A DNA stretch of 64,000 nucleotides, taken from Chiloscyllium plagiosum (Eukaryota). Both the position numbers and the translations under genes were made by a program. The stretch covers positions 15,141,585 through 15,205,584 of the forward strand of contig NC_057752.1 of NCBI RefSeq assembly GCF_004010195.1. The letters are read 5' to 3'. The notes beneath the pieces are model-generated. The model made no database searches. It worked only from the letters and a program-made list of their open reading frames with translations, and had not been told where the DNA came from. Below are positions 5,001 through 63,530 of this stretch, one piece after another. The stretch's first letter is position 1, and every line of letters starts with the position of its first letter.

Positions 5001-5327
5001 TTTTTTAAAATTCATTCAAAGGATGTAGGCATCACTGGCCGGGCCAGCTTTCATTGATCATCCCTAATTGCCCAGAGGGCAGATCAGTATCAACCACTTT
5101 ACTGTGGGTCTGGAGTCACATGGAGGAAAGACAAGATAAGGATGGCAGTTTCCTTCCTGAAAGGACATTAGTGAACCAGATGGGTTTTTCCAGCAGTCAA
5201 CGATGGATTCATAGTCATCATTAGAGTCCTAATTTCAGATATTTAGCGACTTCAAACTCCACCGTCTTGCATGGCAGGATTCAAACCCAGATCCCGAGAA
5301 CATTGCCATGGTCTCTAGATTAATAGA

Positions 5328-7551: not shown

Positions 7552-8080
7552 CCTGTACCAACCCAACCACCCTGTGGCTCAACATTTCAATTCCCCCTCC
7601 CACTCCACCAAGGATATGCAGGTCTTTGGATTCCTCCATCGTCAGACCACAGCGAAACGATGGTTGGAGGAAGAACGCCTCATCTTCCGGTTAGGAACCC
7701 TCCAACCACAAGGGATGAACTCGGGTTTCACCAGTTTCCTCATTTCCCCTCTCCCCAGCCTGTCTCAGTCAAATCCATCAAATTCAGCACCGCCTTCCTA
7801 ACCTGCAATCTTCTTCCCGACCTCTCCGCCCCCACCCCAGTCTGACCTATCACCCTCACTTTGACCTCTTTCCACCTATCACATTTCCGACACCCATCCC
7901 CCAAGTCCCTCCTCCCTACCTTTTATCTTAGCCTGCTGGACAAACTTTCCTCATTCCTGAAGAAGGGCTTATGCCCGAAACGTCGATTCTCCTGTTCCCT
8001 GGATGCTGCCTGACCTGCTGCGCTTTTCCAGCAACACATTTCCAGCTCTGATCTCCAGGATCTGCAGTCCTCACTTTCTC
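7552..8080 (+). mobile_element. Penelope-like element 3' part (GIY-YIG endonuclease C-terminus plus terminal repeat with hammerhead core 7957-7984)
   Basis: PVAQHFNSPSHSTKDMQVFGFLHRQ...LEEERLIFRLGTLQPQGMN is typical of Penelope ORF ends. Confidence 0.85.
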
Positions 8081-9180
8081 CAATAGTTGCCCCACCACTA
8101 AGGTTAGGCTGACTGGCATGTAGATTAGTTCCTGATTTATCTCTTGCTCCCTTCTTGAATAGCGTTACCACTTGGCAATTCTCCAGTCATCTTCCACCTC
8201 TCCTTCGGCCAGAGAAGAATTACAAATTTTTGCCAATGTTATTTCTCCCTTGCCTCATTCAACAATTTGGAATACGTTTGATCTGGCCCTGGAACTTTAT
8301 GTACTTTTAAGCCTGTCGGAGTACTCAGAACCTCCTCTCTGTCTATGCTGACTCCTTAAATTATATCACAGTACTTCTCCCTCATTTCTATAACCACATT
8401 GTTCCTTTCACTCATGAACACCAACCCAAAGTATTCATTTAGAACCCAACCTACATCCTCTGGCTCCACGAACAAACTACCACTTACTGGGCCCCACTCT
8501 TTCCCTAGTTATCTTTTTGTTCTTAAGCTACTTGTAAAATGGTTTAAGATTTTATTTTGTTCTACCTGCCACTATTCTTTCATGACCCTTTTTTTGCTTT
8601 CTTGATTTCCTTTTTAAGTTCCCTCTTGTACATTGTCTACTCTATCTGGGCTTCTGCTGTTTTGAGCACTCAGTATCTGTCAAAGGCCTCTCTTTTTCTC
8701 ATTGTCCAATGCTGTGTGTCCCTTGATATTCAGGTTTTGATGGTCCCACACTTTTTCTTTATTGGATCATCCTGCCCCTGTACTCTTCATATTCCCTTCA
8801 TGAATGCATCCCACTGTTCTGACACAGATTTACCAGAAGAATATTCTCCAAGTCCACACTATCCAAGTTATATCTGGTCTTATTGAATTCAGCCTTCCCC
8901 TAGTTGAGAACTTTGATTTCAAGCCCATTCTTGTCCTTTTCCATAACAATCTTGAATCTGACTGAGTCATGGTCGCTGTCTGCAAAATGCTCTCCCTCTG
9001 ATACTTCAACCACTTTCCCAGCTTCATTCCCTCAAGTTAAATCTAGGACCACCCCTTCTCTTGTAGGGTCTTCTATATACTGGCTTAAAAAGCTGTCCTG
9101 GATGTATTTTAAGAATTCCACTCCCTCTAAACTTTCCGCAGTTAACTTTAGGGAAGTTGAAATCCCCTGCCATCACTACC
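8081..9180 (-). mobile_element. CR1 LINE fragment (AP endonuclease region)
   Basis: RVVMAGDFNFP motif and a degenerate RPVSLT motif. Confidence 0.75.
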
Positions 9181-16395: not shown

Positions 16396-17789
16396 ATTGT
16401 CTCTAGGTTGGGTGCATCAGTGTCTATCACCAAGTATGCCTTGTGGCACATCTGCTGACCTAGCTGGTTGAGCCCTAAAGGTTAATGATGAAGAACCAAC
16501 AAGAGGCAAACACTTATTGACGTCATCCTTATTTGCCTGCTGTAGATACATCTGTCCGTGACAGTATCGGTAGGAGTGACCACCCACAAGTCCTTGTGGG
16601 GATGAAGTCCAACTGTTACTTTGAGAATACCCTTCATCGTGTTGTCTGGCACTATCACTGTGCAGACTTCAAACAGATCGAGTACCTCAACAGCAATAGA
16701 ATTGTGCTCCAGCACAATTTGTAAAATCATGGTCCGGTATATCATCCACTCAATGCAGGAGGGCATGCCAGGAGCAGCACCAGGTATACCTGAAGATGAG
16801 ATGTCAACCTGATGAGAGCTACCAAATACTTGCATGCCACACAGCATAAGCAGCAAGTGAGAGACAGAGCTAAGCAATCCCACAATCAGTGGATCAGAAC
16901 TAAACTCTGCAGTCCTGCTATGTCCAGTTATGAATAGACAATTAAACAACTCCCTGGAGGAGGCTCCAAAAATGTCTCCATCCTCAACAATGGGGGAACC
17001 CAGCACATCCATGCAAAAGCAAAGGCTGAAGCATTCAATGGAGGTTATTCTCACTGTGAAGGCAGGACTTTGTCTCCACAAGGACTATGTGGTGGTCATT
17101 CTTACTGATACTGTCATGGACAGATGCATCTCCTGCTGCCAGATTGGTAAGGATGAGGTCAAGTATGTTTCTCCTTCATTTTGGTTCCTTCACCACCTAC
17201 TGCAAAGTCTACAGATCCTGACAACATTCTGGCAGTAGTACTGAAGACGTTCTCCAGAACCTACCTGCCCATTGCACCATCAGTCTTCTCTCAATTAACA
17301 GTAAACTGATGGAAAGGCTTGTCGACAGTGTTATCAAGTAGCACTTCGTGACGGCACCCAGCTTGAGTTCTGCCAGCACCTCTCAGCTCCTGACCTCATT
17401 ACAGCCTTGTTTCAAAAATGGACAAAAGGTAAATTCCGAAGGTGGGATGGGAGTGACATTCCTTGACCTCAAGGCCGCATTCAACCGAGTGCAGCATCAA
17501 GAAGCCAATTGGAATCAAGGATAAATGTTACTTGGAGTCATAGCTGCCACAAATGAAAGTGGCTGACATTGTTGGAGGTCAGTTGTCTCAGTTCCAGGAC
17601 ATTTCTGCAGGGATTCCTCAGGGTAATGTCGTAGGCCCAATCATCATCATCAATGACTTTTCCTTCAACATAATGTCAGAAGTGGTGATCATTGAACAAT
17701 GTTCAGCACCATTCATCACTCCTCAGATACTGAAGCAGTCCATGTCCAATTGCAGAAAGTCCTGGACACTTGGGCTGACAAGTAGCAAG

Positions 17790-18436
17790 GAGAAAGTGAG
17801 GTCTGCAGATGCTGGAGATCAGAGTCGAGAGTGTGTTGCTGGAAAAGCACAGCAGGTCAGGTAGACAATAGGTGCAGGAGTAGGCCATTCAGCCCTTCGA
17901 GCTTGCACCGCCATTCAATATGATCATGGCTGATCATTCCTAATCAGTATCCTGTTCCTGCCTTATCTCCATAACCCTTGATTCCACTATCTTTGAGAGC
18001 TCTATCCAACTCTTTCTTAAATGAATCCAGAGACTGGGCCTCCACTGCCCTCTGGGGCAGAGCATTCCACACAGCCACCACTCTCTGGGTGAAGAAGTTT
18101 CTCCTCATCTCTGTCCTAAATGGTCTACCCCGTATTTTTAAGCTGTGTCCTCTGGTTCGGCACTCACCCATCAGCGGAAACATGTTTCCTACTGTCAGAG
18201 TGTCCAATCCTTTCATAATCTTATATGTCTCAATCAGATCCCCTCTCAGTCTTCGAAACTCAAGGGTATACAAGCCCAGTCGCTTCAGGTAGTATCCAAG
18301 GAGTAGGAGAGTAGACATTTTGGGCCAGAGCCCTTCATCAGAAAGTGTTCTTGATGAAGGGCTCTGGCCTGAATCGTTGATTCTCCTGCTCCTCGGATGC
18401 TGCCTGACCTGCTGTGCTTTTCCAGCAACACACTCT
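17790..18436. mobile_element. Palindromic Penelope-derived insertion, itself interrupted by a CR1
   Basis: Inverted arms; TSD tgacaagt(a/g)gcaag at 17776-17789 and 18437-18450. Confidence 0.8.
17865..18284 (-). mobile_element. Young 5'-truncated CR1 3' end
   Basis: Uninterrupted frame KRLGLYTLEFRRLRGDLIETYKIMKG...IKGYG; TSD tcaggtag at 17857-17864 and 18285-18292. Confidence 0.9.
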
Positions 18437-19279
18437 TGACAAGTGGCAAGTAGCATTCACACCACACAAGTGCCGGGCAATGATCATCTCCAGCAAGGGA
18501 CAATCTAACCATCAACCCTTGACATTCAATGGAATTACCATTGCTGAATCTCGCATTATCAAGATCCTGGGGTCACCATTGACCAGAAACTCAACTGGAC
18601 GCACTACATAAATACTGTCTGTAGAAGAGCAGAACAGATGCTAGGAATCCTGCAGTGAGTAACTCAACTTCTGACTCCCCAAAGCCTGCCTGTCATCTAT
18701 AAGGCACAAGTCAGGAGTGTGATGGAATACTCCCCACTTTCCTGAATGAATACAGCTCCAACAACACTCAAGAAGCTCGACACCATCCAAGACAAAGCTG
18801 TCCCTTTGATTCTTATTCTATGCTTCACCTTAAACACTCACTCCCTCCACTATTAACACAATGTGTGCCTCTGCAAGATAGACTGCAACAACTCATCAAG
18901 GCTCCTTAGACAGCACCTTCCAAACCCATGTCTTCTACCATTTGGTGGGGCAAGGGCAGCAAATACATGGGAATACTGCAATCTGTTAAATTCCTCTCCA
19001 AGCCACACATTATTCTGACTTGGAAATGTACTACAATTCCTTCATTGTCGCTGGGTCAAAATCCTGGAACTCCCTCTCTAACAGGATTATGGGTCTACCT
19101 ACAGCACATGGACTGCAGCAGTTCAAGGAGGTAGTTTACCATCACCTTCTCGAGCAACTAGGGATGGGCACTAAATGCCTGGCCAGCGATGCCCACAGCC
19201 CATGAATGAATAAACATAATTGAATATCCTTGAAGAAAGCAGACCTGTAAGATTAGCATTAAGCATTGCTGCAAGAAGA

Positions 19280-21669: not shown

Positions 21670-22142
21670 TGCCCTGTGGCCATCCAGTTCAACTTCCCCC
21701 TCGCACTCCCCCAAGGACATGCAAATCCTGGGCCTCTTCCACCGCCAAATCAAAGCCACCCACCAACTGAAGGAAGAACACTTCACCTTCCGCCTCAGGG
21801 CCCGACAACCGCACAACATCAACACTGACTTCAGTTTCTAAATATCCCCTCCCACCACCTCATACTTGGCACCACCCTCTTGACCTGTCCTACCTGTACA
21901 TCTTCCTTCCCACCTATCCACTCCACCCTCCCCACTGACCTATCACAATTACCTCCCACCTGCATCCATCTATCACCATCCTATCTACCTTCCCAGCCAC
22001 ACCCCCACCCCCCATTTATTCTCTCATCCCCCTTCCCCCTCCCTTTTCCTGATGAACGGCTTATGCCCGAAAAATTAATTTTCCTGCTCCTCGGATGCTG
22101 CCTGACCTGCTGTGCTTTTCCAGTACCTCACATTTTGACTTG
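21670..22142 (+). mobile_element. Penelope-like 3' fragment
   Basis: SPSHSPKDMQILGLFHRQ...EEHFTFRL; degenerate hammerhead end. Confidence 0.75.
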
Positions 22143-29288: not shown

Positions 29289-30146
29289 AGTTTATGGGCC
29301 TCCTTCTTCAAGAACGTACAACCCAGATGGCCTCCTTCTTCAAGGACCGCAATTTCCCCCCCGACGTGGTCGACGATGCCCTCCACCGCATCTCTTCCAC
29401 TTCCCGCTCCTCCGCCCTTGAACCCCGCACCTCCAACCGCCACCAGGACAGAACCCCACTGGTCCTCACCTACCACCCCACCAACCTCCATGTACAGCGC
29501 ATCATCCGCCGTCACTTCCGCCACCTCCAAACGGACCCCACCACCAAGGATATATTTCCCTCCCCTCCCCTACCAGCACCCCGTAAAGACCACTCCCTCC
29601 GTGACTCCCCCGTCAGANNNNNNNNNNNNNNNNNNNNNNNNNNNNNNNNNNNNNNNNNNNNNNNNNNNNNNNNNNNNNNNNNNNNNNNNNNNNNNNNNNN
29701 NNNNNNNNNNNNNNNNNNNNNNNNNNNNNNNNNNNNNNNNNNNNNNNNNNNNNNNNNNNNNNNNNNNNNNNNNNNNNNNNNNNNNNNNNNNNNNNNNNNN
29801 NNNNNNNNNNNNNNNNNNNNNNNNNNNNNNNNNNNNNNNNNNNNNNNNNNNNNNNNNNNNNNNNNNNNNNNNNNNNNNNNNNNNNNNNNNNNNNNNNNNN
29901 NNNNNNNNNNNNNNNNNNNNNNNNNNNNNNNNNNNNNNNNNNNNNNNNNNNNNNNNNCCTTGACCTCTTTCCACCTATCGCATTTCCGACGTCCCTCCCC
30001 CAAGTCCCTCCTCCCTACCTTCTATCTTAGCCTGCTGGACAAACTTTCCTCATTCCTGAAGAAGGGCTTATGCCCGAAACGTCGATTCTGCTGTTCCCTG
30101 GATGCTGCCTGACCTGCTGCGCTTTTCCAGCAACACATTTTCAGCT
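29289..30146 (+). mobile_element. Young Penelope-like element spanning an assembly gap, hammerhead core 30056-30083
   Basis: QMASFFKDRNFPPDVVDDALHRIS...RTPLVLTYHPTNL; 16-bp TSD ctgtttctctttgact at 29273-29288 and 30147-30162. Confidence 0.88.
29618..29957. other. Assembly gap (N run)
   Basis: Ns. Confidence 1.
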
Positions 30147-30249
30147 CTGTTTCTCTTTGACTGCCTGGTGGTCACCCATTCCCTTCTTTCTTCCCGTCCC
30201 TTGAGCTGCAATGTGACCACCTCTCTAAATGTGCTCTTCATATAGGTAC

Positions 30250-37619: not shown

Positions 37620-38150
37620 AGGTGAAAGTGAGGACTGCAAATTTTGGAGATTAGAATCGAAAGTGTGGTGCTGGAAAAGCACAGCAGGTCAGGCAGTATC
37701 CGAGGAGCAAGAGAGTCAACATATCGGGCAAAAGCCCTTCATCAAAAATGAGACTGAGCCAAGGAGGTGGAGAGATAAATGGGAGGGGTGTTGGGGGTGA
37801 GGGGGGAAGGAAGGTAGCTGATAGTGTGATAGGTAGATGGGGGTGGGGGTAATGGTGATAAGTCAGAGAGGAGGGTGGAGAGGATAGGCTGGAAGGAAGA
37901 TGGACAGTTAGGACAGAACATGTAGGTGGTGCCGGGTTGGAGGGTTGGATCTGGGATNNNNNNNNNNNNNNNNNNNNNNNNNNNNNNNNNNNNNNNNNNN
38001 NNNNNNNNNNNNNNNNNNNNNNNNNNNNNNNNNNNNNNNNNNNNNNNNNNGGCTCCAGCCTCATTTCTGATGCCCGAAATGCTCGGCTTTTGCCCAAAAC
38101 GTCGATTGTTGCCTGACCTGTGCTTTTCCAGCACCACACTCTTGACTCCC
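37620..38150. mobile_element. Penelope-derived insertion with inverted ends, spanning a gap
   Basis: Opposite-orientation terminal repeats flanking N run 37958-38050. Confidence 0.7.
37958..38050. other. Assembly gap (N run)
   Basis: Ns. Confidence 1.
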
Positions 38151-39974: not shown

Positions 39975-41300
39975 CCCACCCAGCACCACCCTCTTCCACT
40001 TGGCTGAGCTCATCTTCACCCTCAACAACTTCTCTTTTAACTCCTCTCATTTTCTTCAGGTTGGGGTGGGGGGGAATGTTGTGCCCTGGGTATGCACATG
40101 ACCCCTAGTTATGCCTGTCTCATCATGAAATATGTGGAACATTCCTTGTTCCAGTCCTATTCTGGCCCCCACCCACAACTCTTTCTTGGATATATTGATG
40201 ATATCATTGGTGCTGCTCGTCGAGAATTGGAATGGTTTACTGATTTTGTTTCCAATTTCTACCTTGCCCTCACTTTCACCTAGTTTATCCTCTCTTCCAG
40301 CCTTCCCTTCTTCGACACCTGTTTCCATTTCTGGGGATAGACTGGCCACCAATATCGACGTTTCGGGCAAAAGCCCTTCATCAGGATTCCTGATGAAAGG
40401 CTTTTGCCCGAAGCGTCAATTTTCCTGCTCCTCGGATGCTGCCTGACCTGCTGTGCTTTTCCAGCGCCACTCTGATCTAAACTCTTGTTTCCAGCACCTG
40501 CAGTCCTCACTTTTGCCTGGCCACCAATATCCACAATAAACCCATCGACTCCCACAGCTACCTGGACTACACATCCTCCCACTCTGTTTCCTGTAAAGAC
40601 TTCATTCCATCCTCCCATTGTATATGTTCCGACGAGGCCAACTTCGATAAGGGCGCCTCTGAAATGTCCACCTTTTTTTTTTAGATTAGATTACATTACA
40701 GTGTGGAAACAGGCCCTTCGGCCCAACAAGTCCACACCGACCCGCCGAAGCGAAACCCACCCATACCCCTACATTTACCCCTTACCTAACACTACGGGCA
40801 ATTTAGCATGGCCAATTCACCTGACCCTGCACATCTTTTGGACTGTGGGAGGAAACCGGAGCACCCGGAGGAAACCCACGCAGACACGGGGAGAATGTGC
40901 AAACTCCACACAGTCAGTCGCCTGAGGCGGGTATTGAACCCGGGTCTCAGGCGCTGCGAGGCAGCAGTGCTAACCACTGTGCCACCGTGCCGCCCACCTT
41001 CTTCCTCAACCAAAGATTCCTCAGCACCGTTGTTGAGCGTCGACTGCGTGACTGCTTCACAGAACACCTACGTTCTGTCCGCAAAAAAGACTTCCAATTG
41101 CCTTCCACTTTAACACAACATCTGACCAACATCTCTGTCTCAGGCTTGCTGCAGTGCTCCAGTGAAGCTCAGTGCAAGCTGGAAGAACATTTCCTAGCTA
41201 CCATCAGGTCTGTGGAAGGGTCACTTGACCTGAAAAGATCACTCTGATTTCTCTCCACAGATGCTGCCAAACCTGCTGAGCTTTTTGATCGCTTTCTATT
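39975..41300 (+). mobile_element. Degenerate Penelope-like element (RT and GIY-YIG remnants) with nested palindromic insertion and SINE
   Basis: PSYACLIMKYVEHSLFQSYSGPHPQLFLGYIDDIIG (RT YIDD) and RRLRDCFTEHLRSVRK (GIY-YIG). Confidence 0.85.
40681..40996 (-). mobile_element. Young full-length HE1-type V-SINE
   Basis: Complete head (gggcggcacggtggcacagtggttagc) and tail; CpG-rich. Confidence 0.92.
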
Positions 41301-44700: not shown

Positions 44701-46169
44701 TATCTATTTCCCTGTTCCTTATTATTGATTCTCCAGTCACATCCTCCAAGGGTCCTGCACTCATACTTTAGCTTTCTCTTTCTCTAAAAGCTCTTGCTGT
44801 TGGTTTTTATATTTCTGGTTATTTATTTTCATAATAAAGGTTCTTCCATTTTACTCGCTTTTTATTCCTCTGCTGCTGGGTTCTGAAAACAACCTCAATC
44901 CTCTGGTCGATCACGCGTATTCACTGCGTTGCACACTTTAATCTTTGATAGGATACGTTCCTTGATCACCTTTGTTCACCACAGGTTCCTTCCTTCTCGT
45001 TGAGTCATTCTTTTTAATCAGGATAAATTTTTGCTGAGTCTTATAAACTATTGAATGATCTGCTTGAACACTCCCTGAGAAATTCCTGTCCAGGAAGCTT
45101 TTCTCCTGAAGCAGAGTAAATAGGTCCTAGGAATCCTGAAAAATTAAGGAGTGGAGAGGATGAGCATATGGATGAGTGCTCACGGTAGGTCAGGGAAGAA
45201 GGTGCCCAGTCTGGTGGGTGTTGGGGTGGGGGGTGAGAAGGGAGGGTGTGCCAGGGGCTCAGTTTAATAGTCACTTGGGAGTTCAAGCAGGTTTTTAATC
45301 CTCTAACCTTTCCTGGGTAACTAATAGGTGAGTTGGAACCCAGTGAATATCCAACTTGAACATCTGCTAATGGAAGATTTCCTGTGTGGACAATTCCTGT
45401 GGAGTCAGCTGCGTCAACAATTCCACATGGTCCCTACGCACGACTCTATGCTAATGTCACAACAACTGTGTCATTGGCACTTCTGGACCAAAAAAGACTC
45501 AGACTTGGTAAAATGCTCAAGTTGACAGATGACACAAAACTCAGAGATGTATTAAACAATGAGGAGGATAGGAGCAGGCTTCAGGAGAAAAGGCAGAGAG
45601 GGAGACATTCTGGTGAGAGAATGCAAGGCACTCAAAAGCAAAAGAAGAATGTAGCTCCTTTTCCAACCTCTCCTTGGGGCATGGTACAGAGCAGATCCAT
45701 CTTCGCCCCTAGATGGAGGCTGGGAATTGAACCTCTCATTTCATTTTGTCCCCATTGGACCCGGAACTGTTGCCTTTCTTGCTGGCTATCCTTCAAAATT
45801 AAATGTGAGAAATCATTGGGCTCTTCGGCCTTGGAGTGCTCCACAGCAGAGTTTTCCCAATGCCTTTGCACAGAGTTCCTAGCAGAAGTGCATGGATAGC
45901 GCACGGTGCTGAACCCTGACTGATTTTCAGAGCTATCACAATTCCAACCAGCAATATTCCATGGTTTATTTTAACCTCTTTCAGATTCACAAACAGACCA
46001 ACATTAAGCTGAAAGATTCAGAAATGGTTAACAAGTAAGCATTCACATGTGAAGATTCCAGAATGCTGGGGATCAAGTAATGTGTGATTAATATTGTAAG
46101 TACAAAGTCCGAATCAGAAACTGGGAAGTGGAGACTGAATGATACTTATCACTCAGTTCCCCTATTTAC

Positions 46170-46580
46170 AGAGTGGTGCTGGAAAAGCACATCTGTATCC
46201 AAGGAGCAGGAGAATCGATGTTTCGGGCATAAGCCCTTTATCAGGAAAGTGGGAGCGGCCCAAGGAAGGATCCTTGTAGAGAGAGGCACCACCCTCCTGA
46301 CCTATCCATCACCTTTCCCATCTATCTGCTTCACCCTCCTCTCCGATATATCACCTTCTCCCCCACCTTCATTTCCCTATCGCATTCCCAGCTACCTTTG
46401 CCCCAGCCCCAACCCCCTCCCAATCTCTCAACCTCCTTGAGCCACCCCCTTATTCCTGATGAAAGGTTTATTCTCCAAATGTCGATTCTGCTGCTCCTCA
46501 GCTGCTGCCTGACCTGCTGCGCTTTTCCAGCACCACACACTCAACCCTGATCGCCAGCATCTGCAGTGCTCACTTTCTCC
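46170..46580. mobile_element. Older Penelope-derived insertion with inverted termini
   Basis: Minus-oriented arm at 46170-46245 and plus-oriented end at 46450-46580. Confidence 0.7.
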
Positions 46581-47004
46581 CCTGTTTACAGACCCAGACT
46601 TCACATTGTCTGATTTCTAGCCCCTGAAAGCTGGGGGGGGGGGGGAGAAAAATCTCTGGACTATAATGAAGGATTTTCCAAGGCGGAGACATAAGCAAGC
46701 CGTTCATGTCTGACTGTGCTTCCCAGATTTTGTTTGAATTCATTTGGGGACTGGCTGGATCAGCATTTATTGCCCATCTCTCCTTGCCCTTGAGAAGGTG
46801 GTGGTGAACTGCCTTTGGTCCATGTGCTGTAGGTAAACCCACAATGTCATAAGGGAGGAAATTCCAGGATTTTGACCCAGTGACACTGAAGGAACTGTAA
46901 CATACCTCCCAGTCATGATGGTGAGTGGAACTTGCAGGTGCTGGTGTTTCCTAGTCTTTGTCCTTCCAGTGGTTGTGAGTTTGGGAGGTGCTGTCTACAG
47001 CCAT

Positions 47005-48634: not shown

Positions 48635-49702
48635 CTAAAGGAAAAAGGCCCTGTTAGTCCAAACATATCTCAGTGACCAGAATGTCAACAAGCTTCCACT
48701 ATTTGTGAGAGCAATATTGAGCAAATACCTCTCATTGTTCTTGCCTCACATGGGAACACTGCACATTAGGCAGAAAGGAGGGAAACTGTACTGCATTGGC
48801 CAGTTTTTTTCAAGACCTCTCCGGGCTGGAATTTTCTCAGAGGACTGCTCTAAGTCAGCATGTACAATGATAGACACAAGAGTCTGCTGCAGAGGCCTAC
48901 CAGCACCCAGAGCTTCCTCTCTCTACTCCAGCAGAGAAGGCTGGTGACCACTCCCCTCTGCATGACTGGAAACTGGGCTGGGGAGATGGGGTATCCACTG
49001 ACCATCCAAGTATCACCTTCAGGCGAATGAGAGCAGTAATGTCAATCTTACAGAGTAGCAGCATGGAGGGGAGGCTTCACTAAAGCCATTATTGCCTTTT
49101 ATAGATAGTATGGCTATTGTTGGACTCTTGACAACTTTGAAACATCAGCCTTTGAGGTTCTTCCAGCTGCACATCGGGAGAAGATTCAGCAGATTGCTGG
49201 CTGGGACCTCTGATGGGAGGCTGGAGTTTGGCAGAGCAAGAGGTGATCACCTCAAGATTCTGAAGGGGCTTTTTGGGGCGGATACTGAGAAGTTATGTCC
49301 CCTGGTTGGGGAACCTGGAACATGAGAAAAGGGATTGATCATTTCAGACTGAGATGTGGAGAAATGTCTTCACTCAGAAGGTTGTGAATCTTTGGGATTC
49401 TCTGCCCCAGAAGGTGTGGATGCTCAATTATTGAATCGATTCAAGGCTGGCACAGACAGATGTTTGGTCTCATGGAATCGACAGAGAGAGGGTGGAAAAG
49501 TGGAGTCGAGAATGAAGATCAGCCATGATCATATTGCCTGGCAGGGATGTACCAAGTCCTCTGTTCCTCCTATTTCTGATATTTTGTAACAACTACTATA
49601 GTTGAATCAGCTAAAGTTTTCTTGAAGGTAGAGACCCTGCCCAAGCCCCGTAACAGCTGGGTAGTCCCAGGGCCAAAACCAAAGCAAGGCGTGAGTGTAC
49701 AT

Positions 49703-49890
49703 CAGACGCTGGAGATGAGAGTCAAGATTAGAGTGGTGCTGGAAAAGCACAGCAGATCAGGTAGCATCCGAGGAGCAGGAAAATCGATGTTTCGGGCAAA
49801 AGCCATTTCCTGATGAAGGGTTTTTGCCCAAAGCGTCGATTTTCTGGCTCCTCGGATGCTACCTGACCTGCTGTGCTTTTCCAGCACCAC
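49703..49890. mobile_element. Palindromic Penelope-derived insertion (diverged arms)
   Basis: Head-to-head arms around ttcctgatgaaggg. Confidence 0.8.
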
Positions 49891-50484
49891 GCGAATGAAT
49901 ACAAAGCTAGTTCATCCCAAGGTTATGATTCCTGAGCAACAGGCTCTTGCAGTCAGTGTGTCCAGTGTTGCATACAGCAGATTGGGAAGTTAGTGAGCAA
50001 TCCCCAATCATTTATAATTCATAGACTCAAGTTCCCACTGACATCCTGGTCCCCAAAAAGTAGAGACGGTGGTATAGTGGCCTAGAGGGCCAGGTTAATG
50101 CCCTGGGGACATGGGTTCATGGCATCTGGAATTTAAATTCGTTGACTAAATTGAAATATAAAGTTGGCCTCACCATCATCAATTGCCGTAAAAACTCATC
50201 TTGTGCACAAATGTCCTTTAGGGAAGGAAATTGCTGTCCTTATCTGGCCTGGCCTACATGTGACTCCAATATGTTCAATTCTTAACTGTCTTCTGAAATG
50301 GCCAAGCAAGCCCCTCAGTTCAAAGGCAACAAGGGATGGACAACAAATGCCGGCCTTCCCCACGATGCCAGCATCCCACGAAAGAATAAATTAAAACCAT
50401 CCCAGATGAGCAATCTTGGCAGCAGAAACATTGTACTAGGAACAGGAATTCGACTTGAATGGGCATTGTGGAGGTCAAACTCAC

Positions 50485-50526
50485 CTCTCCATTATAAAAG
50501 CAGAATATCGTTGTCACTGGTATCGC
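50485..50526 (-). CDS. calcrl2: Calcitonin receptor-like GPCR, 42-bp TM7 exon (AIPVTTIFCFYNGE)
   Basis: Acceptor ctttctttcacag|, donor GAG|gtgagt. The 42-bp exon typical of class B GPCRs (CALCRL GLLVSTIFCFFNGE). Confidence 0.92.
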
Positions 50527-50741
50527 CTGTGAAAGAAAGCAGATTTATTTGTCACTTCGCTGCATTTGAGAGTTCCCTATCCAGTCAAGCCCAGTCATTC
50601 TCCCAGCTCTGGGAGATCAAGTCTGTCAGGTATTTCAGTTCAGAAGCAGCTAACCCTCTGCAATTTGGAATGGGCTGGACTGTTCAAATGTGAAGAATCA
50701 GTTGTGCGTGAATTAGTCACACTGGAACAGGAACAGACTTC

Positions 50742-50956
50742 GAGGAGAAAGTGAGGTCTGCAGATGCTGGAGATCAAAGTTGAAACTTTATTGCTGGAAC
50801 AGCACAGCAGGTCAGGCAGCATCCAGGGAACAGGAGATTCGACGTTTCGGGCACAGGCCCTTCTTCCTGAAGAAGGGCCTGTGCCCGAAACGTCGAATCT
50901 CCTGTTCCCTGGATGCTGCCTGACCTGCTGTGCTGTTCCAGCAATAAAGTTTCAAC
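50742..50956. mobile_element. Perfect-hairpin Penelope-derived insertion
   Basis: 88-bp perfect inverted arms 50779-50866 and 50869-50956; TSD aggaacagacttc. Confidence 0.9.
50867..50894 (+). ncRNA. Minimal type I hammerhead ribozyme core
   Basis: CTGAAGA-A-GGGC-CTGT-GCCC-GAAA-C-GTC: complete catalytic core, stem II, palindromic ACGT stem III, GUC cleavage triplet. Confidence 0.7.
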
Positions 50957-51285
50957 AGGAACAGACTTCTCAAGTAGGTTACAATGTGGTTTAGGGGATC
51001 TAGGAACATGAAAGTCAGTAAATCATTGATATGACAAGGACCATAGTCCATCAAATTGACCTTGGAACATGCTGATATTTGCGTGATCCATCGCCTGGCT
51101 CTCTCTCCTTATGGATTAGTTCCCCACCCACAAGCTGGTAACATCAGACAGTGACCAATTGGACTGTGGAGCTCTGCATGTGAGGAAGTCCCAGGAACAA
51201 CCTGGATCCTATCTCGCGAATGGGGATACATCGAGGGAAGGGTGGTTGTTTGGGAGTGTGGGTCTACTGTGCCATCATGATATAG

Positions 51286-51495
51286 CTGAAACTTTATTGC
51301 TGGAACAGCACAGCAGGTCAGGCAGCATCTAGGGAACAGAAGATTCGACGTTTCGGGCACATGCCCTTCTTCAGGAAGGGCATGTGCCCGAAACGTCGAA
51401 TCTTCTGTTCCCTAGATGCTGCCTGACCTGCTGTGCTGTTCCAGCAATAAAGTTTCAGCTTTGATCTCCAGCGTCTGCAGACCTCACTTTCTCCT
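51286..51495. mobile_element. Perfect-hairpin Penelope-derived insertion
   Basis: 86-bp perfect arms 51284-51369 and 51375-51460; TSD ccatcatgatatag. Confidence 0.9.
51347..51374 (-). ncRNA. Minimal type I hammerhead ribozyme core
   Basis: Reverse complement CTGAAGA-A-GGGC-ATGT-GCCC-GAAA-C-GTC; same sense as the GPCR pre-mRNA. Confidence 0.7.
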
Positions 51496-52155
51496 CCATC
51501 ATGATATAGTGTTACCAATATACAGGTTTGCAGTACAAAACAGATCATGGCCTATAGACTGGAAACAAACAGAGCTGAGATATCACCAGAACATCTGCTG
51601 GACAGAACCAGATGGATAGGCAGATTACAGTTGTTTTTAAATCTGTGGTACGGTATCCCCATTTAGGCTCCAAACTTAAATTCAAGGATGCCAACTGTTT
51701 TATCTGAGTTGCAATGTTAAACAAAATCAAACCACTTCTCTGCTTTTTCCAGAGTGTTGCCCTCATGAGACATCCTTCAGCATCTCAGCCAAGTGACAAG
51801 CAGGAGTCACTGCACAGTGGTCAGGAGCAGCACCCCAAGGCTAATTTTGCACCAATACCAAATCTAAGCCTGTTTCAGATGAGAGCAGCTCAGTCCCCAA
51901 ACAGAGCCTGGGATCTTCCTCTGTCCCCTCTGTGTAGGGTAGCTGGTGATGCACACTAGTGATACTTTGCCCTATACATGCCCCAGCTGTATGCCCATTG
52001 CTCATGATTCAGGTGGTTTGTGAGCGGCACAAAGGTAGGGTTTGGATTGGTTTTACGGCAGACAGCATGTCAATAGGGCTCAGCCCTCACCCTAACAGGA
52101 AGCTGGGCATTGGTCATGGTCTGGTTGTCCACCAGAATCCATGAGGATACTTTAC

Positions 52156-52374
52156 CTGATAATGTAGACAGATGTGCATCACGTGTTCATAAATCTCTCC
52201 GGTAATGTGCCCCTTGGGCTTTGCTGGAACCAGCACATACTGAATGCCAAGCAATGGCACCAGAATCAATGTGGCTCGTACCACCTTCATGTAGGCTTTC
52301 GACTGCGCCTGGTGGGTAACCCTCAGCTTTGTGATAAGAACTCGAACAATGTTGAGTAGAAAAAACAGGTTGAC
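52156..52374 (-). CDS. calcrl2: Calcitonin receptor-like GPCR, TM5-TM7 exon (219 bp; [73 protein letters not shown])
   Basis: Acceptor ccctgtctcccag|, donor CAG|gtaaag. Open frame with strong similarity to CALCRL/CALCR, including the PLLG motif of TM6. Confidence 0.95.
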
Positions 52375-54211: not shown

Positions 54212-55420
54212 AAACCTTGTAGAAACTATTGTCCCCAGTTTACTTGATGATTTGTGATTGGTTTCACAGTGGATTGTGTCCCTGTCTCTGAGCTAGAGCT
54301 CCCCAGTTACCCTGGAGAAAGTGGTTGTGAACTGCTTTCTTGAACTGTTGCAGTCCACGCTTGAACGTTCGTGTTGGTGTTGAAACAGCTCACAGATTGT
54401 GTTAACCATCAGGCAGTGAACCGCTTCTGAAGAAGTCATGCTGGACTCAAAACATTAACTCTATCTCTTTCTCCACAGATGCTGCCAGACCTGCTGAGTT
54501 TGTCCAGCAAATTCTGTGTTTGTTTTGCAGCATCTCCAGTATTTTGTTTTGACCAAATTAGTGAGCAGTGACAGGAGCGACTGACCGCAGCATCGTTTTC
54601 TGTGCCCCCAGCCTGACCTCACACCATGTGATTTTTACTGGAAAAGCTGGAAGCTCAAAGTGAGCTAGACAAAAGCCCAGGACTTGATACTAAAGGGGAA
54701 GTTGGGAAATGATGGGGGAATGGCAATGTTACTGGATGTGTAAATCAGAGATCCAGGCTAAACCCTTGGGGAAATGAGTTCAAATCCCACCACAGCACCT
54801 GATGGAAATTAAAATCAATTAATAAACCATCATGATTTTTCTTTTTAAAAACCTCCTGGTTCTCTAATGCTCTGCTGTCCTTACCTGATCTGGCCTTGAA
54901 ATAACTCCAAACCCACTGCAATGGCATTGACTCTTAACTGCCATCTGAAATGGCTGAAGGGAGAGGCTACAATCTCCTTTTCCAAAGAGGTGGTCACCAT
55001 TTTTTAGATCTCCAAATCCCATTTGGCCATGAAGACATCCTTGAGCTTAGGACTGGTCTATCCATTGGGACTGCTGGAATTATAAGGAAGGGGAAGGGGG
55101 GATCATTCCCAACAGAGTTGGTAAATGGATTGAAATGGGAGTGTTGGAAAACCTGGGCGATGGATAGCAGGGCAGCCAATGGAGGGGCCTACTCCAGCCA
55201 TTCTCCCATTTCAGGCAGGTAGACACCAGAATGATTGAACTGACCCCTGATCCTGGCTCAGCAATGGAAGCTAGTTGAGAGGAGAGTCCCCAAGCTCACC
55301 GCCAAAGAGTTGTGACCAATTGATTCAAATGCTGCTCGACATCCCCCACAGCTCCATTTTACATTCCTTGAAGATACAGGCCCAGAGCTCCCTTCATTTT
55401 GTGGTTCCCTTCTCATCTAG

Positions 55421-56009: not shown

Positions 56010-58816
56010 CTGAAAGGAAAACAGAGATCCAGCATCAATTCCCTCATTCAGCAAGGGTCACATGGCACAATATTCCTCTTTCTATTTCAAGGACCTGGGC
56101 AGTGCTGAAGTTCCAGGTGTGATCAGATTACTGGAAAGAGCACTAATGGACAGGAGCTATAAGGTGTGAAGAGATGCAACAATTGGCTTCCAACTTTGCT
56201 TGACGGCCATGAGAAAGGCTCAGGCGGAAGTTCCTCTTCGTCACCAGCTGCTGCCAGGGAGGGTGGAGGTGCCAGACAAAATGAGCAGCAGGAGTGGAAT
56301 GGAGATCCTGAATATTGTCCACAGCTACAGATCAAGGATGGCTCTTGGCAGCCACGTTTCACAGTGGGACCCTTCCCGCATTGTGTACGTCAGCCTTCCT
56401 CCCCTCCCCTACACCATGTTCACCAGCCCCAATCAAATCAGTCCAGTTTTACCCAATTCCCACTTTCTCCATCCTCTACTGCCAGAAGTCTCACTCCTCC
56501 ATTCCTCCTATCAGACCTCATTCATGTCCCCTCACCCTCCCTCCATATCCTGAGATGGCAGTACGCCCCAATTTTTCACTCCCATTCTGAGGAAGGGCTA
56601 CTGGACCTGAAACGTTAACCCTGCTTTGTCTTCACAGGTGCTGCCTGATCTGCTGAGCTTTTCCAGCTACTTTCTGCTTTTGTTCCACTCCCATTCCTTG
56701 TGCCTCTACTACACCCATCTCGTTCTTTCCCCCGTATCTGCACCACCCCCAGGCTGTTGTCCCTTGTGAGAGGCTGGAGGGCTGAGTGTTCATGAGATAG
56801 TACAGTCCACAGGAGGGCTACAGGGACTGAATAACATTTCTCCAATACAGGAAGAAGACCTGAACACCAGTAAACCCTCAGGTCCTACCGATGGGGAGAC
56901 TATAATCTTTCAGGCATTTGTCTCGAGTGTCAGAACATCACACTCCGATCACATCTTGATTGCACATTATCAGTATCTCAAAAGGTCCATTGCCTACTAT
57001 TGCCTTCTCCTTTGCTCTTCCAAGGTCACCACCTGAAGATTATGAGCCACGCCCCAGGAGAGGACAAAGACTGGATACATCCATCACAAGATCTAGTGTT
57101 GTAGGCCACAGTGCAGATGCCAGCCCACTTGGGTTGGCCCTCTTCACTGGGGAGTTGGGAATGCACTTGGCAGTTCTCACAGTGAGTGGCATGAAAGGGA
57201 TGAGAAGAGTGGCAGGGGCAGCTGCTGCGATGGGAGCTACACGGTGCTGATCAGGGCAGCTCATTGGGGCCAACCATGAAAAGTTTGGGAGAGCGGCAGC
57301 AGCTGGGCTCTCCATCTACAAGGGAAAGAGAGGACGAGGATTTCAACTCAAAGGCCTGATGGTAGTCATGGTAACCACAGCCACAAACGTTCGCACCATA
57401 GAGTTGCACAACACAGAAAAAGAATCTTCGGCCCAACTCGCCCAAGACGACCAGATATCCTAAATTAATCTAGTGTTATGAAGGTGTGGGTGGACTGTAT
57501 CTTTAAGAGAGTTAAAAGCTAGCAAAGACTACCTGACAGCACTAAGTATTCTGAAAAAAAGATACAATGTAACATGTGCTCCAGCTACCAAACTTCAATC
57601 CAGTTTGAATTGAGTATATTGACAATCTTAAAAGCCAATGACACAATCCGATGCTTTGGGGCATAAGACTGGGGAAAATTGAACAGTTGGGGGCAGCTGC
57701 TAAGCTACCAGAATGTAAAGACTGTCTGAAAAATAGCTCTCTTAAAGGCAACTTTTTCACAGAGAAGTGGTTCATGTTTGGAATGATTTGCCAGAAGAAG
57801 TGGTGGAGGCTGGTACAATTATAACATTTAAAAGGCATTGGTACATGAATAGAGTCATGCATCATGAAGCCATCTCCTGTCTTCCGCACTATCACAGACC
57901 CACACAAGCTGTTTACTCACGTGGTCCTCTGTAGATGGCTCAATACCTCTGCCTTACAATCTCCCTTCAAAATAAAACAGGATAAAATAACCTCTTGAAA
58001 GCCATAGCATCATCACAACAGCTCCAGCATGAGACTGATGCATTTAGGTATCTGCTGTTATAGTATCTCTTACATTAAGCACTGCAAAATCTGGCTTTGT
58101 GTTTGGGTCCCATCATTTTTACACTCTTGTCTATCTGAAGGCAGACAGGACCTGCCTATTTCCTTTATCCTGCACCTCAAAGATATTGAAGCAGTCCATG
58201 TCTGCATCCAGCAAGCCTTGAACAACATCCCGGCTTGCGCAGGCACATGGCGAGTAGCATTCAGAATTGCAAAATTGTTATGGTGCAGAGGAGGCCATTC
58301 CCACCCATCCTGTCTGCACTGGCTCCCGGAATGAGTCACTTAGTTCCATGTTCCCTCCTTCTTCCTGTACGTCTGCACATTGTTCCTTTACAGATAACAG
58401 TCCAACTCTCTTCTGAATGCCTCAATTAAAACTGCCTCATCCACACTCACAGACAGTGCATTCCAAATGTTAACCACTTTTCTCCTATTATTTCTGCTTC
58501 TTTTACTAATTACTAAATCTGTGCTCTCTGGTTCTCAATCCTTTCATTAATGGGACCCATTTACTCTGTCCAAATTCTTTGTGATTTTGACATCCTTTCA
58601 AATCCATTAATATATTTCAACCTTCTCTTCTCCAGGGAATGCAGTCTCAACTTCTTCAAACAACCTTGGTTCCTTGGGACCATTTACCTGAGACTTCTCT
58701 GTACCTTGCTTCATGCTTTCAAGTTCCTCTGGAAGTGTGGCTGCCCCATAGAATTGGACACAATACTCCAGCTGAGGTCTTATGCAGGTTCAGCATAACC
58801 TCCCTGCTATTATGCA

Positions 58817-62180: not shown

Positions 62181-63530
62181 GTTTCTATCTGTCAGCCAGG
62201 GCTCTCTGAGTGGATAAGATTAACAGCCCCAATCAGGGAACTTGCATTGGAGGCAGTCCAGAGAGGTTCACTAGACCAGGTATGAGGGTCTATCTTGGAG
62301 AGGTTGAGTAGATTAGGCCTGTACTTGTTAGAATATTGAGGAATTAGAGGAAACTGTAGTAATTCGAACAGAGGTAAGGCGAGAATAACTGCTCTCGTCG
62401 TCAAGCCACATTTGACTGAATGTATCATGAAGAAGGTAAAACAATGACTGCAGATGCTGGAGACCAGATTCTGGATCAGTGGTTCAGGCAGCATCCGAGG
62501 AGCAGTAAAATCGACGTTTCGGGCAAAAGGAATACCATGTATCATAAAGAAGCCATCGATAAACTAGAGTCAATGGGAATCCAGGGAAATTGGACTCCAT
62601 TGGTTGGAGTCATACCTGGCACACAGGAAGATGGTTGCGGTTGTTGGAGAACCATCTTCAGCCGCTTCATGGGAACACCTCCACCTGCAAGTTTTCCTCC
62701 AAGCCACTCTCCATCCTGACGATGTCACCATTCCTTCAGCGTTGCGGAGTCCAACCCCGGGAAGTTCCTCTCTAAAAGCACTGAGGGTGCAGCAACGCTG
62801 CAGTTCAACAGGGCTACCCACTGCCAGCTCCACAGCAACGATGCGTGGGCAAGAAATGGTGGCCCTGCCAGCAGTGCCCACATCCTATGAATGAACACCT
62901 GTTTTTTACTAAAGGGTGGATCTGCTGACAGGGGTTCCTGCAGCCTGAACATAGTGCTCGCCATTTCACCTCACTCAGCTCAAACCAGCAGCAGAAATTG
63001 TCTTCTGACAGAGTTGTTTACACCTTCTCAATGATCCAAACAGCTTCACGGACAATGAAATGCTCTTGAAGCGCAGGCATTATTGCAAACAAGGCAGCCA
63101 AATTGTGCACAGCATGCTCCCACAACTAGCAGTGAGATCAGTTATCATACCATGTGATTTTTCTGACATTGGTTGAAAGATAAATATTGGCCAGGACACC
63201 AAGGATGATTTGCTTTCTCTTCTTCGAATCCGGGCCATGGAATTTTAAGGATCAAGCAAGCCTCAGTTTAATATCTCAAATGAAAGACAGCACTCTGGAA
63301 TACTAAATGGCCTGGACAGAGTGGATGTTGGGAAGCTGTAGGAGAGACTAGGACTCAAGGGCACAGCCTTAGAGTAAAGGGGAGACATTTTAGAATGGAG
63401 ATAAGGTGAAACATCTTCAGCGAGAGAGTGGTGAATCTCTGGAATTCACTACCACAGAAGGCTGTGGAGGCCAGGCCAGTATATTTAAGACAGAGGTCGA
63501 TAGGTTCTTGATTGTCAAGGAAATTAAGGG

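Follow-up and report, generated by a model that had tools for sequence, protein, structure and literature searches.

Two short, perfect hairpins, here called A and B, stand close together in a 64,000-nucleotide stretch of the Chiloscyllium plagiosum genome (the window; NC_057752.1, 15,141,585 to 15,205,584), each with a minimal hammerhead motif at its apex; they raise the questions of what kind of element produces such insertions and of whether the ribozyme determines where they fold back. An earlier note on this DNA had taken them for a separate, MITE-looking class with its end set by the ribozyme. The analysis given here places them instead, with a probability of about 0.93, as miniature insertions of a Penelope-like retrotransposon, built from one terminal repeat with its tail, a tail-less inverted repeat and a TSD.

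Two hairpins in one receptor-gene intron

The gene that hosts A and B runs on the minus strand and has a 7tm_2 match (E 8e-13); its closest relatives among solved structures are the CGRP type 1 and calcitonin receptors, the best being the CGRP type 1 receptor (E 3e-30), and by this similarity it is a calcitonin-receptor-like class B GPCR. The exon upstream of the intron, which encodes TM5-6, ends at 52156, and the gene resumes at 50526 with an exon of 42 nt; A and B thus both lie in one intron, so that the claim of two insertions in a single GPCR intron is borne out by the exon borders together with the 7tm_2 match. The 42-nt exon starts with an unusual Ala-Ile-Pro-Val, at a place where the calcitonin-type receptor family usually has Gly-Leu-Leu-Val. 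The insertions enlarge the 1.6 kb intron by about 450 nt, including two perfect duplexes of 86-88 bp. They are also mutually inverted (50742-50872 and 51366-51496, 131 nt, 93%, with a spacing of 493 nt) and could thus form alternative long duplexes in the host pre-mRNA, ending ~215 nt upstream of the acceptor at 50527.

The arms of A (50779-50866 and 50869-50956) measure 88 nt with a spacer of 2 nt, those of B (51284-51369 and 51375-51460) 86 nt with a spacer of 5 nt; complementarity is 100% in both, just as the earlier note had described, and the folding z-scores are -28.7 (A) and -26.5 (B), with none of 200 shuffles equally stable. A is flanked by an exact direct repeat of 16 nt, of which 3 nt are common to the arm end, so that its TSD comprises 13-16 nt; the flanking repeat of B, likewise exact, has 14 nt, of which 2 nt are common to the arm end, for a TSD of 12-14 nt. 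The TSDs had been called exact, which holds for the direct repeats and is qualified by these shared nucleotides.

Both hairpins are asymmetric: past one arm only runs an unpaired tail, 37 nt long in A and 35-36 nt in B, and this one-sided tail, which the earlier note leaves out, is the feature that identifies their element class. The whole insertion, repeat plus tail, comes to about 212 nt without a reading frame, and none begins at the ribozyme in either hairpin. Of 122 positions compared between A and B, 5 differ, and all four of the differences that fall in the arms are mirrored in both; since the arms are identical within each copy while the copies differ, the derivation of both arms from one template stands. 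The mirrored substitutions had also been thought private to each hairpin, which is not so for one of them, the 'ctaggg' state, as it recurs in a non-hairpin copy at 5317. A and B are oppositely oriented relative to the tail and their apex junctions differ; they have subfamily features in common that are absent from the young linear copies of the window.

For the age of the insertions, four sequencing runs (DNA, and one of RNA) were aligned to 49450-51800. The alignment of one contig from a related species (run X9, record 22) is broken into three segments, 50283-50741, 51001-51271 and 51496-51800, so that both inserts are missing from it; at B the two flanks meet precisely at the TSD. One contig thus crosses both sites insert-free, and the reading of A and B as young, independent insertions is supported. 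In the window's own species, contigs from two samples in two studies extend the flank 22-25 letters into A, short of the 31-letter bridging rule, and 610 contigs of run X3 have a loose end at 50743, the edge of the tail of A. A contig of the same run (record 8) stops aligning exactly at the right TSD of B, at 51496, with 30 letters remaining; it is read as a probable empty allele, which makes B probably polymorphic for presence and absence. Intron duplexes with such a probable polymorphism could affect editing or splicing. Each DNA run holds between 62,081 and 98,236 contigs matching 49450-51800, a figure that is not a copy number and from which the family is taken to be very large in both species. 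In the RNA run, from single-cell poly(A) material, 2,876 of 12.96 million reads match, on both strands, and 98% of them continue into unlike sequence; no position has many molecules beginning or ending, in a library of a type unable to map a start or a cut, and letter changes in these reads are indistinguishable from family variation.

That the perfect arms are an artefact of assembly or polishing is hardly credible: the window does contain two N gaps, and neither apex is spanned by any contig among those listed, yet the TSDs are exact and the sites empty in the related species, the junction-side contigs for A come from two samples of two studies, and older hairpins, with arms of 80-89%, are constructed in the same way. 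The gaps, at 29618-29957 and 37958-38050, both lie inside or adjoin copies of the family.

Table 1. Features of the host intron, of hairpins A and B, and of related copies in the window.
Feature	Position	Strand	Basis or remark
Host intron	50527..52155	-	flanked by the exon that ends at 52156 and by the 42-nt exon at 50485-50526
Calcitonin-receptor-like exons	50485-50526 and 52156-52374	-	receptor similarity
Left TSD of A (13-16 nt)	50726..50741	+	exact direct repeat; empty site in related species
Penelope tail of A, 37 nt	50742..50778	-	3' end of element, no partner arm; folding, end comparison
Long arm of A	50779..50866	-	pLTR copy, sense on minus strand; first two nucleotides of the core missing
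Short inverted arm of A	50867..50956	+	intact minimal hammerhead motif 50867-50894: core start, 4-bp stem II, GAAAC-GUC
Right TSD of A	50954..50969	+	first 3 nt also match arm end
Left TSD of B	51272..51285	+	last 2 nt also match arm end
Short inverted arm of B	51284..51374	-	intact minimal hammerhead motif, running 51374 to 51347
Long arm of B	51375..51460	+	without the first five core nucleotides
Penelope tail of B, 35-36 nt	51461..51495 (or 51496)	+	folding, end comparison
Right TSD of B	51496..51509	+	empty site in related species; probable empty allele in same species
Related non-hairpin copy	7559..8081	+	C-terminal endonuclease region, then ribozyme-bearing repeat and tail; tblastn to P0001/P0003/P0005
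Related non-hairpin copy	29306..30149	+	post-RT linker fragment, assembly gap, then repeat ending at proximal site
Older non-hairpin copy	21713..22134	+	joined to endonuclease end
Older hairpin C, same family	49689..49896	.	arms 88% complementary, apex at core
Older hairpin D	40340..40531	.	TSD 15-17 nt; inside Penelope RT fragment; short arm ends at most 3 nt from GUC cut
Older hairpin E	17776..18450	.	TSD 14 nt; split by later insertion ~17865-18284
Inverted unit F	46158..46592	.	TSD 15 nt; junction about -22 and -170, well upstream of core

Membership of a Penelope-like family

BLAST of one arm against the 64-kb window gives 27 matches, which were grouped into 16 insertion units with 22 arm ends. 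Left out of this tally are 38118-38148, 41253-41285, 54464-54510 and 56630-56670, which match mid-repeat only and look like other families; the last three resemble other Penelope families with different stem II sequences. Three copies in the window (7559-8081, 21713-22134 and 29306-30149) continue into sequence 51-83% identical to shark proteins, and the shark homologues of the window copies combine an RT with a GIY-YIG domain and a cysteine-rich linker. This identifies the unit as the terminal repeat of a Penelope-like element with an endonuclease, and the Penelope-like origin proposed earlier is upheld by a unit joined to its own reading frame elsewhere in the window. Pfam gave no Penelope domain directly on the seven window fragments, the link being made through the homologues: in P0003 the GIY-YIG match clears its cut-off (23.2 vs 22.6 bits) while RVT_1 falls short (E 9e-5), in P0004 RVT_1 is above threshold, and P0003, P0005 and P0013 have a Cys motif in the stretch that separates RT from GIY-YIG. 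As this motif is common to Neptune and Nematis (PMC8557442), the shark element would, by its linker, be of the Neptune or Nematis type. Among named sequences, those closest to the Penelope fragment in the window are from Chiloscyllium punctatum (83%) and Rhincodon typus (70%). There were no family matches in viral contigs and none to a 31-letter pattern in metagenome contigs; 48 metagenome loci found with a 19-letter pattern were rejected as chance matches, none aligning over more than 30 nt and the best reaching E 2.8.

The build of A and B corresponds closely to what has been published for this class. A typical Penelope insertion comprises an inverted 5'-truncated copy and a one-sided tail of 30-40 bp (Craig et al. 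2021, PMC8557442), and inverted pLTRs 37 bp shorter than the full ones have been described with a 31-bp tail, a TSD and palindromes at the inverted junctions (Arkhipova et al. 2013, PMC3846280). A and B share with such EN+ units the head-to-head repeat whose inverted copy is 5'-truncated, with one arm ~37 nt shorter, the one-sided tail of the 30-40 bp type, the TSD, the quasi-palindrome at the junction and the hammerhead motif; a repeat joined to an RT/GIY-YIG ORF is found in copies of the family, not in A and B themselves. They differ from EN+ units in being reduced to repeat and tail and in having the junction at the start of the ribozyme core, and inverted units are very frequent here, with six in 64 kb. 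The notion of a separate MITE-looking class is thus given up, the unit being the pLTR and tail of a Penelope-like element in an already published layout (PMC3846280, PMC8557442).

The ribozyme, too, has precedents: metazoan Penelope pLTRs carry minimal hammerheads, with thousands of single motifs from truncated elements and some motifs paired on opposite strands 100-700 bp apart (Cervera and de la Pena 2014, PMC4209133). The motifs found here agree with these in the CUGANGA core, the extra nucleotide before stem II, the G-C first pair, the short helix I, the lack of a helix III and the location in a pLTR, and differ in their stem II of 4 bp and, in A and B, in being buried in a perfect duplex (PMC4209133). 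The literature searched (most subscription journals lying outside it) holds no statement of inverted junctions at the 5' edge of the ribozyme; nor, with Repbase and Dfam also outside, does it describe such elements in sharks, apart from a single line on Penelope in the available text of the whale shark genome paper, in keeping with the earlier note, which knew of none. With both their build and their association with a ribozyme already published, A and B are a tidy but unremarkable case. Their element type as such has little significance; their value is as material for the study of transposition, where young copies with empty-site controls show the exact positions of priming and joining.

MITEs are short, non-coding elements of high copy number with inverted repeats at both termini, fixed ends and a transposase-type TSD, and are moved by a DNA transposase. 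A and B were rejected as MITEs, being asymmetric, with one arm ending 36-37 nt inside the element, and stemming from the 3' end of a retroelement, in a family with variable 5' junctions and with TSDs that vary from 12 to 17 nt; repeat annotation could mistake such copies for MITEs. Retrozymes are non-autonomous retroelements with direct or tandem repeats whose ribozymes release the unit RNA; these were rejected as well, the repeats of A and B being inverted with one intact motif per element. In twin priming of LINE-1, two target-primed cDNAs of one RNA are joined by microhomology, which yields a 5' inversion; the inverted part is not duplicated there, whereas A and B carry the same 86-88 nt twice. 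It is also improbable that transcription of a hairpin master and its renewed mobilisation in trans produce a self-propagating, non-autonomous, MITE-like family. A and B are short, young and bounded by TSDs, and their common subfamily features, missing from the young linear copies, would fit such a master; however, their apex junctions and their orientations relative to the tail differ, the element is asymmetric, the five hairpins with an apex at the core span at least three sequence types, and 183 RNA reads on the arm of A continue into Penelope-body-like sequence. By analogy, a master of this kind would also have to supply what the lizard element needs, namely RNA extending ~55 nt past the start that is not copied into such inserts (PMC11167929).

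The hammerhead motif and the position of the ends

An intact CUGAAGA..GAAAC-GUC core is present on one strand only, the plus strand in A and the minus strand in B, which agrees with the earlier description, as does the assignment to the minimal hammerheads: both motifs have the core boxes, a stem II of 4 bp, a stem I of 3 bp and no helix III. The window contains seven intact motifs, all of them in the family of A and B, where 20 Markov controls average 0.15. Rfam gives no match at the gathering score in the whole window, and the 21 matches up to E 10 around the elements include no hammerhead family, being mostly sub-threshold generic hairpin (microRNA) models. The intact motif of A and of B belongs to the short arm and is preceded by its own antisense copy; imposing the hammerhead fold takes 49.9 kcal/mol in A and 44.6 in B, vs 3.4 and 1.3 in two linear copies, and on the strand of the host pre-mRNA A has no intact core while that of B is buried. 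Judged from these modelled costs and from the buried or absent core on the host strand, the ribozymes of A and B are unlikely to be active. Dimer cleavage is reportedly the subject of a paper by Lunse, Weinberg and Breaker.

Where the elements end was mapped in positions counted from the first C of the core, the GUC cut falling after +27; the tally covers the 16 units of one window, the ends being partly placed by hand and those of two long copies, which end at gaps, being bounds. In 10 of 16 units all 5' ends fall within -8..+11, and in none of the 16 does one fall at +12..+60; under uniform truncation over 200-560 nt, the binomial chance of such clustering is 5e-7 to 2e-11. Among the inverted units the junction lies at the core in five of six, F being the exception, so that the placement of the fold-back points at the ribozyme is borne out for the inverted units and for the units at large. 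One TTC/GAA overlap of 3 nt fits the apexes of both A and B, with either the first or the second GAA of the core taking part. Which arm reaches further towards the apex varies: it is the short arm in A, B and C and the long arm in E and F, with D near a tie.

The arms of F differ far more from each other than do the copies of its TSD (1/15), and their upstream variants differ; F is possibly derived from two different templates. The insertion that splits E (17865-18284) is the 3' end of another retroelement, with an 8-nt duplication. D, whose short arm has 36 nt, sits in a fragment of a Penelope RT at 39976-40678.

The end may thus be said to be set by the ribozyme as far as position goes, not by its cleavage. 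The 5' ends lie ~20-35 nt upstream of the GUC cut and none is near +27, and both arms of A and of B retain GUC, GAAAC and stem II, which together argue that self-cleavage does not make the apex; it is also dispensable for insertion in vitro (PMC11167929). That self-cleavage sets the fold-back end is therefore most improbable, for all that the apex overlaps the first core nucleotides in five of the six inverted units. The short arm of D, ending at the GUC or within 3 nt of it, looks as if a 5' cleavage product had been its template. It may record a priming event on cleaved RNA, but three nucleotides of identity with the target account for it just as well.

How the hairpins may have formed

At the other side of the repeat, the 3' ends fall into two classes ~37 nt apart. 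Of the 22 arm ends, assigned by eye, 11 lie at a distal site, the tail end, at ~+125, 10 at a proximal site at ~+87, and one at +27..+30; all six inverted units pair one distal with one non-distal end, and single-arm copies end at either site (five proximal, five distal). This resembles Poseidon PAc of Anolis carolinensis, where the tail is bounded by two RT start sites whose distance from stem II is comparable (Frangieh et al. 2024, PMC11167929): one lizard start site lies 111-118 nt past stem II, and the shark tail ends ~118 nt past it. In vitro, the lizard protein, a predicted dimer, cuts both strands and extends them from the two internal start sites, inserting uncleaved RNA (PMC11167929). 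These data come from another clade, and the shark element differs from PAc in its cysteine-rich linker of the Neptune/Nematis type, A and B also in that no reading frame starts at their ribozyme.

By analogy with the lizard element, we consider it rather probable that both strands of the target were nicked, one RNA was copied twice from two internal start sites, and the copies were joined in head-to-head fashion immediately 5' of the ribozyme motif. The TSD would result from nicks staggered by 13-16 nt; one nick would prime at the distal site and the other at the proximal one, each with 2-3 nt of primer-template pairing. Both cDNAs would come from one RNA or one source locus, which would account for the identical arms; both would stop near -7..+6, possibly at the 5' end of the RNA, and their ends would pair at the core-overlapping TTC/GAA quasi-palindrome. 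The product would probably be immobile, with an inactive ribozyme, A and B thus likely being dead by-products of element copying.

The origin of inverted Penelope products is given as still unexplained in the available text of Craig et al. (PMC8557442), and self-priming has been put forward for their junctions (PMC3846280): an antisense strand ending in ..CAGGAA would fold back and be extended through the tail, and the endonuclease would then trim it at the edge of the tail, either ahead of integration or in the course of it; the tail has indeed been ascribed to endonuclease resolution (PMC8557442). Such a route would yield identical arms and the short-arm polarity of A, B and C directly, explaining these three as well as a two-cDNA join does, and the 5-nt loop of B is plausible for a fold-back. 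We regard it as rather unlikely all the same: it gives no account of F, whose long arm has ~150 nt that are missing from the short one, and does not easily accommodate D and E; the 2-nt gap between the arms of A is tight for priming; and the single-arm copies at both 3' sites fit two start sites. Fold-back of a target-primed long cDNA, which allows long-arm polarity only, is rejected as the sole mechanism by the short-arm polarity of A, B and C; the joining of two cDNAs, which allows both polarities, is thus favored over it.

Why copying should stop at the core may be sought in the start of the transcript. The initiator-like consensus is YYANWYY, and it occurs with its A at -4 or -6 in 6 of the 7 arms that retain native upstream sequence, arms that are not independent of each other; the motif is degenerate, with 8 matches in 509 nt of neighboring sequence, and is missing from the seventh arm. 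The short class makes up 10 of the 16 units in the window, and its longest 5' ends, at -4, -4, -5 and -7, lie at most one base from the A of the motif, which suggests run-off at the 5' end of the RNA. The apex is thus tentatively read as the 5' end of the Penelope transcript, with a start 4-6 nt before the core: copying primed in the first 90-125 nt would run off, and twin priming would make the mini-hairpin the commonest product. Against a general rule of this kind counts Drosophila virilis, where transcription begins 46 nt before a 75-nt intron (PMC2377424) and the intron ends at helix I (PMC4209133). Should the transcript-end reading hold, shark genomes would contain a very large natural record, at single-base resolution, of where transcription starts, where each of the two cDNAs is primed and where they are joined head to head, and rare units of the D type, with priming at the GUC, would give the first sign in a genome that minimal hammerheads cleave in vivo.

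Two further features of the window may be recorded. A single-arm copy at 62420-62552, with a TSD of 16 nt, has internal deletions, one of which removes most of the ribozyme core; and a long tandem array with a 16-nt purine/pyrimidine unit and repetitive open frames occupies 746-1312.
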